A program made the translations under genes and the position numbers. From Bacteroidales bacterium (GTDB taxonomy: Bacteria > Bacteroidota > Bacteroidia > Bacteroidales > UBA1715): a stretch of 31,081 bases of DNA. The stretch covers positions 1 through 31,081 of the forward strand of contig JAISIO010000143.1 in NCBI GenBank assembly GCA_031262005.1, written 5' to 3'. Below the pieces are notes generated by a model. The model was not told the DNA's origin and searched no databases. It was given only the letters and a program-made list of their open reading frames with translations. Below are positions 5,751 to 10,051 of the stretch, one piece after another (the stretch's first letter is position 1; each line of letters starts with the position of its first letter).

Positions 5751-6215
5751 ATGACTAACGAAGAATTAAAACAACGAATTGCGCAACTTTGCGCCGATGC
5801 GGTTTGCACCGACACTCAAGATTACGTGCTTGCCGAAATTCCTGCAAATAGTCTTTTTGCAGTTGCAAAACAGTTACAAGAACAACCCGACACACAGTTC
5901 GACTATTTATATAGCCTTACAGGCGTGGATTATAATCCCGAATTGGGCGTTGTATATCACTTGGAATCAACCACATTGCACCATAAAATTACTTTAGTTG
6001 CCAAAACTGCCGACCGTGAAAATGCACGATTGGATTCAGTGTGCGAACTATGGAAAACTGCCGAATTGCAGGAGCGAGAAGTGTATGATTTATTGGGAAT
6101 TACGTTCAACAACCACCCCGATATGCGTCGCCTACTGTTGGACGAAGAATGGCATGGACACCCGTTGCGTAAAGATTACAGCAATCCGCAACTTATAGTT
6201 GATTTAATAAAATAA
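5751..6215 (+). CDS. nuoC: NADH-quinone oxidoreductase subunit C (stand-alone, not fused to D)
   Basis: FDYLYSLTGVDY, VVYHLES, WKTAELQEREVYDLLGITFNNHPDMRRLLL, GHPLRKDY. Confidence 0.95.
   Translation: MTNEELKQRIAQLCADAVCTDTQDYVLAEIPANSLFAVAKQLQEQPDTQFDYLYSLTGVDYNPELGVVYHLESTTLHHKITLVAKTADRENARLDSVCELWKTAELQEREVYDLLGITFNNHPDMRRLLLDEEWHGHPLRKDYSNPQLIVDLIK
6193..6215 (+). repeat. Left copy of 23-bp imperfect direct repeat (attL-like), equal to the last codons and stop of nuoC
   Basis: TTATAGTTGATTTAATAAAATAA; 20/23 identical to 10029-10051. Confidence 0.8.
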
Positions 6216-6220
6216 AAATC

Positions 6221-7528
6221 ATGAGAATAGTTGGTCTTGTTGTGAGTTTACTGTTTGTTGTAACCATGGGAGTTGCACAAATGGAAGTGAATAACACGAC
6301 AGGCAATATCTCAATAGGTACTGTAGTTCCCAATACTGACACCAAACTGCTTATGCAAAGTGCAAGTTTGTATGGAATGTATATGGTAAATACAGGAGTT
6401 ACTACTGGTTCACCAGCTCAGCCGAACAAAACAGCCAATGGAATTTATATACACAATAGTGCAGGTAGTTATTCTGGCACTAGCACGGGAATAGCTATAG
6501 AAAATTCGGCTTCTGGTGCGGGTGGTTTTCCTGGTTCTCACTCGATTGGATTATCTATAAATAATACAGGTTACGGTGGTGCTAGCGGTACTTATGCGTA
6601 TGGGATTTCTTGCGAGAATACGATAACAGCACCAATAACAGCTTCTGCGTATGGAGGGCGTTTTACAACAACAACAACCTCTACCGAAGCTAACGTTTAT
6701 GGCATATATTCAACGGTTTCGGGTGTAACTCCGGCAAAAACCTATTCCGGTTATTTTACAGGAGGCAGAGTATTGATTAATAATAATGATTTGTATGTAA
6801 CTGGTAATGTGTATGCTAATAATTTTCCTATTACAAGTGACGAACGCTTAAAAAGTGATATAAAACCATTAACAAATGAAATAGATAAACTGTATCAATT
6901 ACAGGGAAAATCATACAAAAAAGCCGCTGTTGTTATTGAACTACAAGATACGTTATCAATAGAATTACGAGCTAAAAATGAAAGGAAAATTGTTGATCCT
7001 ATTGCTGAGTTTGGCTATTTAGCACAAGAATTGAAAGAAGTTTTTCCTGAATTGGTGAGCATGGATTCTACGAGTGGTTATTATTCGGTAAATTATATCG
7101 GTTTAATTCCTGTAATGGTAGAAGCATTGAAAGTTCAACAACAAAGAATAGAATACTTAGAAGAAACTATAGCAGGTTTTAATACAAATGATACTCTAAA
7201 ATCGGCTGCAATAGACGAAAGCGAAGCAATACAAAATATGTGTTTTTCTGATAATGCAGCAATAGAAGGTTTGAAACTCTATCAAAATGCACCAAATCCA
7301 TTTAATGAACGTACAACAGTAAAATGTTATGTGCCACAGCAAATTCAAAAAGTGCAGTTGTGTGTTTATAATATGCAAGGTGTGCAAGTACAATGTATAA
7401 CTATTGTAGAACGTGGGAACATTTCTATTGAAATAGAAGCGGGGGCACTTTCGGCAGGCATTTATGGTTATGTGTTGCTTGCTGACGGTGCTGCGAGTGA
7501 AACTAAACAAATGATTCTGACTAAATAA
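6221..7528 (+). CDS. Secreted tail-fibre-like protein: signal peptide, beta-helix-like repeats, peptidase S74 intramolecular chaperone, coiled coil and T9SS type A C-terminal domain
   Basis: Signal peptide MRIVGLVVSLLFVVTMGVA-Q; repeats GMYMVN/GIYIHN/GIAIEN/GLSINN/GISCEN/GIYSTV; S74 start TSDERLKSDIKPL (Ser206), FGYLAQELKEVFPELV and VNYIGLIPVMVEALK; CTD LYQNAPNPF...VYNMQG...GIYGYVL...KQMILTK. Confidence 0.88.
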   Translation: MRIVGLVVSLLFVVTMGVAQMEVNNTTGNISIGTVVPNTDTKLLMQSASLYGMYMVNTGVTTGSPAQPNKTANGIYIHNSAGSYSGTSTGIAIENSASGAGGFPGSHSIGLSINNTGYGGASGTYAYGISCENTITAPITASAYGGRFTTTTTSTEANVYGIYSTVSGVTPAKTYSGYFTGGRVLINNNDLYVTGNVYANNFPITSDERLKSDIKPLTNEIDKLYQLQGKSYKKAAVVIELQDTLSIELRAKNERKIVDPIAEFGYLAQELKEVFPELVSMDSTSGYYSVNYIGLIPVMVEALKVQQQRIEYLEETIAGFNTNDTLKSAAIDESEAIQNMCFSDNAAIEGLKLYQNAPNPFNERTTVKCYVPQQIQKVQLCVYNMQGVQVQCITIVERGNISIEIEAGALSAGIYGYVLLADGAASETKQMILTK

Positions 7529-7746
7529 GGGGCGGGGTATTTAATGAAATTCAATGGGTTTCATTCGATGAAATAATGTTGTATGAGAAACGATAGGAGT
7601 TACTTGTTTAATAGCCGAGGTAATAGAAAGTTAGATACGCTTATATTCTTTGGTTGAAGTATAAACGGTTAAAAAAAATAAATATAGAATACAAAAAGAA
7701 GTAGAAAGTTATTATGCGTATGCAGAGTTTGAAGTTATATAAAATA

Positions 7747-8442: not shown

Positions 8443-10019
8443 GAAAAGTAATGTGTATAATAACAATCATTGTACTGACGCATTCAGTGTATGCGCAAGA
8501 TAGGTTTACTTTTATAGAGAACGATACATCTTCTTTTGTTGAAAATGAATTGATAATATGGTTGGAACAAGGAGTTGATGCGAAAGAATTTGCAGTACGT
8601 TCGGCTCAGAAAATTGAACCAAAACGTTGTTTGTTTGAAGAATTAAATATTTGGCTTTTTGAGTTTGCTGATGAAAAAGGACAAAGAAATATGGCGCAGC
8701 GAAATATGCGAATGAATAATTTAGCATCAAATAATCAAGTAAAGTATGTTCAAAACAACCATACAGGTATAGATTTACGAGGTCTTGATCCTGATGATCC
8801 GTATTATAATGGTTGTTTATATGGTGGTCCACAATGGGCTCCTCCGAAAATTGGTTTACCTGATGTCTGGGAAGAATTTACCATAGGAGGAATTACCACA
8901 ACCGGTGATAATATTGTTGTTGCAGTTATTGATAATGGGTTTTATCAGCAACACGAAGATTTGAATTTTTGGAAAAACATCAATGACCCAATAAATGGCG
9001 CAGATGATGACGGTAATGGATATGTTGATGATTATAACGGTTGGAATGCTTATAATAACACGTATTCTTTACTTGATTCTTTACATGGAACTGCTGTTTC
9101 CGGAGTAATTGGGGCTATTGGGAATAATGGCAAAGGTATAAGTGGAATCAATTGGAATGGTAAAATTTCTCCGGTGTGTGGTAGTATTTCCGGTGGAAAT
9201 GAAGCGGTAGTTATTGAAGCATATAGATATGTATATCAAATGCGCTCATTATATAACGAAACTAATGGACAAAAAGGTGCATTTATTGTTGTTACCAATT
9301 CATCGTTTGGTATAGATTGGAATAAAGGAGGAAATCCCTCCAATTTTCCTATATGGTGTGCTTTATATGATGTTTTAGGAAATGTCGGTATATTAAGTTG
9401 TGTCTCTGTTATTAACGCAAATGACAACATAGATATAGTGGGAGATATGCCATCGGGTTGCTCAAGTGAATATCTTATAGCCGTAACAAATACTACAGAA
9501 GATGATACTAAATACTATTTCGCTGGTTATGGTGTTAGTACGGTAGATATTGGAGCTCCGGGTACTGATATTTATACTACCGTTCCTGGTGTTGATGAGT
9601 TCGGATATGCCCCTCGAAACGGGACTTCTTTTGCGAGTCCCCATGTTGCAGGTGTTATTGCTCTTATGTACGCTGCAATGCCACAAAATACAATACAAAC
9701 ATATAAAAATAATCCTGCGGATTTTGCATTGTTTGTAAAACGACAATTACTTGACGGTGCAGATGAAATACCTGCGCTTGAAGGATTAATTGCTGAGAGT
9801 AGAAGATTAAATGCGTATGAAGCCGTGCGAAAAGCGCAGTGTGATGCGTATCTTCTTAATCAAGACGTAATCACTAATAACATACTTACAGCATCATGCG
9901 ATATCAACGTACAAAATGTAGAAGTAGAACAAGGAGTAACATTAATTCTTGATGCCGAAGGGACAACAAAAATACAGAGTATTAAAGTAGAATTAGGCGC
10001 AGGATTAAAAATACAATAA
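8439..10019 (+). CDS. S8 family subtilisin-like serine peptidase (preproenzyme)
   Basis: Signal peptide ending VYA-Q; propeptide to about GIDLR; catalytic triad VAVID165NG, LH216GTAVSGVIG, GTS397FASPHVAG; DIGAPG motif; short beta-rich C-terminal module. Confidence 0.95.
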   Translation: MRKVMCIITIIVLTHSVYAQDRFTFIENDTSSFVENELIIWLEQGVDAKEFAVRSAQKIEPKRCLFEELNIWLFEFADEKGQRNMAQRNMRMNNLASNNQVKYVQNNHTGIDLRGLDPDDPYYNGCLYGGPQWAPPKIGLPDVWEEFTIGGITTTGDNIVVAVIDNGFYQQHEDLNFWKNINDPINGADDDGNGYVDDYNGWNAYNNTYSLLDSLHGTAVSGVIGAIGNNGKGISGINWNGKISPVCGSISGGNEAVVIEAYRYVYQMRSLYNETNGQKGAFIVVTNSSFGIDWNKGGNPSNFPIWCALYDVLGNVGILSCVSVINANDNIDIVGDMPSGCSSEYLIAVTNTTEDDTKYYFAGYGVSTVDIGAPGTDIYTTVPGVDEFGYAPRNGTSFASPHVAGVIALMYAAMPQNTIQTYKNNPADFALFVKRQLLDGADEIPALEGLIAESRRLNAYEAVRKAQCDAYLLNQDVITNNILTASCDINVQNVEVEQGVTLILDAEGTTKIQSIKVELGAGLKIQ

Positions 10020-10028
10020 AAAATGAGT

Positions 10029-10051
10029 TTATAATTGATTTGTTAAAATAA
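10029..10051 (+). repeat. Right copy of the 23-bp direct repeat (attR-like), a displaced nuoC 3' end
   Basis: TTATAATTGATTTGTTAAAATAA reads ATA ATT GAT TTG TTA AAA TAA = IIDLLK*, versus IVDLIK* in nuoC. Confidence 0.8.

Follow-up and report, generated by a model that had tools for sequence, protein, structure and literature searches.

In Escherichia coli, e14 and phage 21 integrate at the 3′ end of icd and provide a replacement for the 3′ end of the gene. Other modules lack a recombinase altogether: Xer-dependent integrative mobile elements (IMEX), dif modules and integron cassettes are moved by recombinases of the host or by others that act in trans, and the dif-like sites are about 28 bp long, with two recombinase-binding arms around a 6–8-nt centre. 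Here we describe a 3.8-kb island that lies between nuoC and nuoD, two genes of the operon for respiratory complex I, in a Bacteroidales bacterium (GenBank assembly GCA_031262005.1, contig JAISIO010000143.1). The stretch analysed, hereafter the window, comprises positions 1 to 31,081 of that contig. The island holds three genes in the same orientation as the operon and is bracketed by two 23-bp direct repeats, a left copy (R) that forms the end of nuoC and a right copy (R′) that precedes nuoD. These repeats are a genuine duplication of the nuoC end. Comparison with relatives further indicates that occupied and empty junctions are exchanged between strains by homologous recombination, and that R′ is held under purifying selection.

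A first-pass annotation of this DNA, made from the sequence alone, had placed the two 23-mers at the positions given in Table 1 and had read them, in the nuoC frame, as IVDLIK* and IIDLLK*. Direct sequence comparison bore out both the positions and the identity of 20 in 23. With up to three mismatches allowed, there are two matches in the window and none in 100 dinucleotide-preserving shuffles, and across the whole 1.58-Mb assembly R and R′ are the sole two places that fit a degenerate pattern with two extra mismatches. A search for the right variant (≤3 mismatches) in two genomes of the same genus returned matches in nuo only, namely the copy before nuoD in G002 and the nuoC end in G001. In genus g3 the same search returned nothing from G004 and a single three-mismatch match from G008, where a control also gave one.

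The relation of the two copies to a single ancestral site is seen by comparison with an uninterrupted relative, contig L058. In BLASTN, window positions 5700–6215 and 10029–10300 both cover L058 7992–8014, such that the two window flanks overlap on the empty site by exactly 23 bp, as expected when an occupied site with a duplication is aligned to an empty one. The 3.8-kb insert is thus flanked by two copies of the nuoC 3′ end. R is identical to the single copy in L058 at all 23 positions. Past the 23-mer, the left side shows no useful similarity (30 nt at 80%); on the right, the first 11 nt of the window spacer are still like those of the empty-site spacer (8 of 11). The annotation had also noted that the right copy is followed by a normal 22-nt spacer to nuoD, and this spacer is indeed homologous to that of uninterrupted relatives.

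We regard it as extremely improbable that the two 23-mers are a chance likeness in AT-rich DNA, as the annotation had also judged, or that R′ lies in the untranslated region that follows the cargo protease gene. The sequence is AT-rich, and a near-identical 23-mer does occur in a 98-kb viral contig without related genes, so that very large collections can yield such matches by chance. Against this stand the empty result from the shuffles, the restriction to two places in the genome and the shared 23 bp of the empty site. The untranslated-tail variant was rejected because paralogues with the same C-terminal domain as the cargo protease lack R′ downstream (local alignment score ≤11 versus 37). 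The viral match (L136 5038–5060, IMGVR_UViG_3300045988_028476; TTATAATTGATTTATTAAAATAA) is intergenic, among small phage genes. It was also considered as a phage attachment site (attP) and judged a chance match, as no integrase, nuo or cargo homologue lies nearby.

To place the island among its relatives, we compared the state of the nuoC–nuoD junction across the family. In other genera of the family the junction is uninterrupted, with a gap of about 21 nt and a NuoC that ends in IIDLIK*. In the host genus, which comprises metagenome-assembled genomes (MAGs) of termite-gut Bacteroidales, NuoC ends in IVDL(I/V)K in every member, and all sampled lineages but two are occupied or carry remnants. 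L058 and the P0127 lineage are empty, with spacers of 18 and 20 nt, respectively; L058 is the closest relative found (NuoC 95% identical), and its nuoC ends in the left 23-mer. The content of occupied junctions varies widely. The window island encodes an S74 protein, a lipoprotein and an S8 subtilase. The 4.5-kb island of G002/L060 encodes an S74 protein, proteins of 301 and 163 amino acids and a 560-amino-acid trypsin-like protein with the same C-terminal domain as the subtilase. An S74 gene also comes first in L113. In L061, L114 and P0001 a PrcB-like lipoprotein, an S8 protease and an S74 protein are followed by at least three further genes, and L059 carries a small lipoprotein and a trypsin-like protease.

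Two further states are reduced. The basal G001/L026 junction is 676 bp long and retains two decayed 3′ ends of cargo genes. Lineage L102–L112 has a 47-nt spacer, the final 22 nt of which are homologous to the window spacer. This last state is known from 11 contigs of many runs (up to 18 contigs recorded), and combines the fixed 47-nt spacer (for example, L105 9466–9512) with a TAG stop codon in nuoC; judged by eye, the first 25 nt of the spacer may be a remnant of a cargo 3′ end. A nuoB–nuoC tree pairs the window with the empty L058 as sisters (support 97/97), and this empty lineage branches from within occupied ones.

The first-pass annotation had interpreted the window as a gene-restoring integration scar, in which a site-specific element had brought the left copy and the right copy was the displaced host end. 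The insertion itself holds, in that a 3.8-kb insert is bracketed by a duplicated nuoC 3′ end and nuoC is intact; the site-specific element did not find support, as no recombinase was detected. In its full form, this alternative posits a decayed element of the tyrosine-recombinase type with the nuoC 3′ end as its bacterial attachment site (attB), R and R′ as the cores of the two junctions (attL and attR), the left copy being supplied by the element, and a recombinase that was lost or acts in trans. Such an element would explain why the repeats bracket the insert exactly and leave the target gene intact, as well as the empty sites in close relatives. However, the roles given to the two copies do not agree with the empty site: L058 has the left 23-mer at 23 of 23 positions, and its NuoC ends in LIVDLIK*, the left variant, rather than in IIDLLK. 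R′ does share Ile-Ile with the outgroup genera, as against Ile-Val in the genus, although this amounts to one nucleotide only (a single transition), and its TTG leucine codon (versus TTA) is the commoner state in nuoC of the genus itself. Derivation of R′ from a foreign donor was considered and rejected: among 74 distinct nuoC ends, the 45 nt of R′ and spacer best match the genus's own empty site. The annotation had further proposed that the conservative differences between the copies reflect selection on the coding sequence in different hosts. Random triple substitutions are equally conservative in about 10% of cases (p about 0.1), and the inference of different hosts has no basis.

Searches for mobility functions bear on the same alternative. 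Pfam detected no recombinase among all island open reading frames (ORFs) of the window, G002/L060 and L061, and the gene lists of L061-type contigs contain none. Genes of family PF00589 (Phage_integrase) number five to seven in each of G000, G001 and G002, and none lies on the nuo contigs of these three genomes (the annotation had suggested looking for tyrosine recombinases near nuoC in related MAGs); serine recombinases were not searched for genome-wide. Non-coding DNA in the window island totals only 185 nt, which leaves no room for a recombinase gene. No terminal inverted repeats were found by pairing the island ends. A transposon or insertion sequence with a target-site duplication was rejected, as there are neither terminal inverted repeats nor a transposase domain in the cargo. 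Viral and plasmid collections yielded no attP-bearing element: no integrase was found beside an attP-like copy in viral contigs, and no plasmid matched the island. Among the assembled contigs of the source run, one spans the occupied form and none the joined form, with the limit that contigs drop rare variants. In the literature searched, no relevant paper that ties nuoC to an attB and an integrase was found. Collectively, these results leave an integrase-driven origin possible but unsupported, and we consider the decayed site-specific element an unlikely, if serious, candidate.

How occupied and empty junctions interchange at present is indicated by two contigs, L130 and L058. L130, as well as L131, carries the right end of the island, including the cargo 3′ end, R′ and the spacer. 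Both are 98.3% identical to the empty L058 over nuoD–nuoH (94.9% at third codon positions of nuoD), a level of identity expected within a single species. In total, 41 of 2,449 nt differ between L130 and L058. Nine of these differences fall within the opening 60 nt of nuoD, which are followed by ~395 nt without any, the next one being at position 456 (binomial p=5e-7). Their spacers, too, differ in type (TATTTATACTTTTGCCCACATT in L130 and TTCTTATACCTACCTACA in L058). Given the differences in the spacer and the 5′ end of nuoD, this pair cannot have arisen by a clean excision or deletion that joins R to R′. The pattern instead indicates that homologous recombination replaced the entire junction allele, with one breakpoint falling within nuoD, and this is a further point against the site-specific element. 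Sliding identity between the flanks of the window, L058 and L060 showed no clear dip; the breakpoint is visible only in the closer L058/L130 pair.

A reading of the right copy as a passive scar is also not supported. R′ is identical in the window, G002/L060, L130 and L132, and is part of a 37-nt block that is invariant in these four lineages (Table 1) while its flanks vary. Variable columns amount to 0 of 37 in the block, compared with 5 of 9 in the linker that joins the cargo stop codon to R′ (10020–10028), 4 of 9 in the last positions of the spacer and 12 of 60 at the 5′ end of nuoD. With flanks this variable, a recent transfer of the entire right end is ruled out. Third codon positions of nuoD are 72–81% identical among the four lineages, and the neutral chance of identity over 37 nt between just two lineages is about 0.72^37, or roughly 5e-6. 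These patterns argue that R′ and the next 13 nt are under purifying selection and are not decaying. The non-coding copy of the nuoC end is more conserved than the coding copy.

Promoters of Bacteroidota (Bacteroides and Flavobacterium) share a consensus of TTG or TTTG at −33 and TAnnTTTG at −7. The conserved block would most likely supply a signal for the expression of nuoD–N past the insert, for example an internal promoter of the form TTG-N20-TAnnTTTG, for which a motif scan gives a candidate (Table 1). A box of the same TAnnTTTG type, TACCTTTG, at 4785–4792, precedes nuoA by 35 nt and may mark the main promoter of the operon. Over 19.5 kb of the plus strand TAnnTTTG occurs 17 times, about once per 1.15 kb, with 3 of these in intergenic DNA. 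The region around R′ was also considered as a possible structured RNA or terminator, and this reading was rejected (fold z=0.39).

The cargo is of a cluster family with several chromosomal copies and differs from species to species. Paralogous clusters that run from an S74 gene to a protease gene are present at other loci in G001 and G002. The S74 protein of the G002 island is 74% identical to its own paralogue compared with 57% to the S74 protein of the window island, which indicates that cargo is being replaced through paralogues. When the window and G002 islands are compared, their edges (~115 nt at the start of the S74 gene and ~165 nt at the end of the last gene) diverge to about the same extent as the flanking genes (84%), and their middles are unrelated. 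The last ~50 amino acids of the window subtilase (about 9864–10016, ending in VELGAGLKIQ*) form a C-terminal domain that is common to other proteases at several loci of the genus. The G+C content of the insert is 0.29–0.39, compared with 0.40–0.46 for the nuo genes. Cargo gene 1 starts 5 nt past the nuoC stop codon and has homologues in the G002, L061 and L113 islands and at paralogous loci; the L061-type homologue has a Por_Secre_tail match. Residues 123–216 of the cargo gene 2 protein resemble residues 31–133 of the subtilase, its propeptide region (36% identity, E=2e-14, BLASTP), and the protein could act as an inhibitor or chaperone on its own. In further variants of the island, the S8 gene is paired with a gene for a PrcB_C lipoprotein.

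The architecture of an S74 protein, lipoproteins and a protease ending in VELGAGLKIQ* recurs on the reverse strand at G002:C53 (L133) and G001:C43 (L135), and the copy at G002:C53 ends in an ordinary hairpin-plus-T-run terminator in place of R′. Orphan fragments that match the final ~40 nt of the protease gene are found in non-coding DNA at L026 8990–9141 and, on the reverse strand, at L133 5591–5632. Those in G001 are two tandem copies that precede nuoD, and the one at G002:C53 is fused to a truncated short ORF and is 93% identical. Such orphan fragments of a common 3′ end show repeated deletions, and the cluster deletions seem to end repeatedly at the same place. We also observed that 27 nt at the 3′ end of the window S8 gene (9998–10024) are 78% identical to the start region of nuoD (10068–10094), with AAATACAATA shared; this likeness is not conserved in relatives and is probably due to chance.

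That the cargo is a resident, multi-copy cluster family, co-oriented with the operon and tightly packed within it, speaks against a site-specific element, and it bears on a second alternative. A copy of a paralogous cluster could have been captured without site specificity, at a staggered break or through template switching, with fill-in synthesis producing the 23-bp duplication. Only duplicating events would then survive, as they preserve both the nuoC frame and the sequence upstream of nuoD. Close paralogues of the cargo in the same genomes and the lack of mobility genes and terminal repeats are consistent with such a capture, and the constrained R′ fits the survivorship of events that kept the nuoD upstream region. 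However, 23 bp is long for break repair, and there is no direct evidence for the process. In addition, L061 contains an R′-like sequence, TTTATATTCAATAAAATAA, between the stop codon of its S8-like gene and the start of its S74-like gene, internal to the island and not proximal to nuoD (p about 0.03). This is possibly a decayed copy of R′, and capture would need a second, similar event to produce it, whereas its position after the stop codon of the first module is as expected from tandem accretion of a site-specific element. We judge non-site-specific capture, as a full account, to be rather improbable. Candidates for decayed copies of R′ in G001 (p=0.14) and in the L105 spacer of 47 nt (p=0.37) were rejected as not significant.

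On balance, we lean towards a composite account, with modest confidence, that combines an old insertion, turnover driven by recombination and a constrained R′, and that is agnostic on the enzyme. In the ancestor of the genus, a copy of the multi-copy chromosomal cluster would have inserted once, directly behind the nuoC stop codon. The inserted cluster would have encoded an S74 fibre-like protein of the type IX secretion system, one or more lipoproteins and a secreted protease with the common C-terminal domain. Insertion would have duplicated the last 23 bp of nuoC, such that the left copy keeps nuoC intact and the right copy stayed attached to the spacer upstream of nuoD. This founding duplication could have arisen by Campbell-type integration at a short att-like site, through a recombinase that acts in trans or has since disappeared, or by fill-in at a staggered break. 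At present, the locus is a recombinase-less accessory island within the complex I operon and not an active integrative element. Its cargo is remodelled by recombination with paralogous clusters, deletions leave remnants, and strains swap whole junction alleles, occupied or empty, when the nuo genes on either side recombine homologously. Selection keeps the right copy and the 13 nt behind it, most likely as an expression signal for nuoD–N.

Several observations weigh against this composite account. The founding event was not observed, and nothing points to its enzyme. The relatives compared were metagenomic contigs or MAGs only, and the tree cannot rigorously separate a single gain from several gains at this site. 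For the L130 lineage no left junction was recovered, and its difference from L058 may reflect either gain in L130 or loss in L058. For the proposed promoter, the TACTTTTG box ends 8 nt before the nuoD ATG, which would give a nearly leaderless mRNA, and G002 has TACTTTTA at the position of the box. A TAnnTTTG arising by chance in the 54-nt gap is about 5% probable, and G001 and L105 have kept nuoD without a recognisable R′.

A further and quite doubtful proposal is that R and R′ are sites for a recombinase encoded elsewhere, which moves and tandem-stacks S74/protease modules at the nuoC end, as in L061 and perhaps G001. If this were so, the invariance of R′ would mark a live attachment site, rather than or besides a signal for nuoD, and the locus would represent a trans-mobilised cassette system aimed inside a respiratory operon.

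Around the island, the operon is otherwise ordered nuoA, B, C, D and then H to N, with nuoH–N following nuoD to about position 18555 (Table 1). The window NuoC is 87–95% identical to other NuoC proteins of the genus. The true start of nuoB is probably later than that of its ORF, as gene calls in relatives give 185 amino acids. A NuoC query found no match in 18 genomes of the sister genera g2 and g5 (G003, G006–G023), most of which are >90% complete, and complex I thus appears to be patchy within the family.

Table 1 Features of the nuo operon and its island in the window (all positions in window coordinates).
Feature	Position	Strand	Description and basis
nuoA	4828..5193	+	Complex I subunit A, first gene of the nuoABCD-HIJKLMN operon; Pfam Oxidored_q4, 1.2e-31
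nuoB ORF	4977..5741	+	Pfam Oxidored_q6, 1.2e-30
nuoC	5751..6215	+	Intact, 154 aa, ends in LIVDLIK*; Pfam Complex1_30kDa, 5.4e-40
Left repeat R	6193–6215	+	Terminal codons and stop of nuoC; TTATAGTTGATTTAATAAAATAA; reads LIVDLIK* in the nuoC ORF
Cargo gene 1	6221..7528	+	435-aa secreted protein with Peptidase_S74 (intramolecular chaperone) domain; Pfam PF13884, 9.7e-13
Cargo gene 2	7714..8442	+	242 aa, lipoprotein-like N terminus; no Pfam match
Cargo gene 3	8439..10019	+	526-aa S8 subtilase; Pfam Peptidase_S8, 2.6e-27
Variable part of the 9-nt linker	10020..10027	+	Between cargo stop and R′; last linker base (10028) invariant
Invariant 37-nt block	10028..10064	+	1 nt, R′ and 13 nt of spacer; four lineages
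Right repeat R′	10029–10051	+	Non-coding copy of the nuoC 3′ end, ending 22 nt upstream of the nuoD ATG; TTATAATTGATTTGTTAAAATAA; same register would give IIDLLK*
Promoter-like motif (candidate)	10035..10065	+	TTG at 10035–10037, 20-nt gap, TACTTTTG at 10058–10065; motif scan
Spacer before nuoD	10052..10073	+	22 nt; same type in L060, L130, L132 and L105; differs from the 18-nt spacer of L058
nuoD	10074..11192	+	Intact, 372 aa; Pfam Complex1_49kDa, 4e-84

Our findings carry a caution for the annotation of mobile elements: direct repeats that restore the end of a gene are not proof of an integrase-driven element, and gain and loss at this locus now proceed by ordinary homologous recombination. 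They also show that the essential, normally compact nuoA–N operon tolerates a strain-variable island between subunit genes. If the 37-nt block is an internal promoter, the locus would be a clear natural case of operon rescue after insertion. In addition, the comparison identifies a variable family of secreted protease/fibre clusters in termite-gut Bacteroidales.

Among known systems, the locus resembles e14 at icd in that direct repeats correspond to the 3′ end of the target, the gene is intact and a slightly different second copy lies at the far junction. It differs from e14 in that the duplication is only 23 bp long and no gene for an integrase, an excisionase or a phage protein is present. 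The insert also lies inside an essential respiratory operon and in the same orientation, the empty site has the left, in-use variant, the far copy is conserved and presence or absence is exchanged through homologous recombination in the flanks. With IMEX elements, dif modules and integron cassettes it shares recombinase-less cargo within short direct repeats, and possibly a tandem of two modules with a repeat-like sequence in L061. Unlike IMEX elements and dif modules, R and R′ show by eye no dyad symmetry or two-arm site, and unlike integron cassettes the locus has no integron integrase and no attC-like fold (z=0.39). Only a single chromosomal site was found for it, with no second site or free form, again in contrast to these modules. 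The closest likeness in behaviour is to accessory islands that are exchanged by homologous recombination, with variable cargo at a fixed position among core genes, a breakpoint in the flank and replacement through paralogues. Unlike the usual islands of this kind, it sits between two subunit genes of one enzyme and is bracketed by a 23-bp duplication of a gene end. The locus is therefore a modest variant of known island biology and not a new class of element, and it leaves the general view of mobile elements unchanged.

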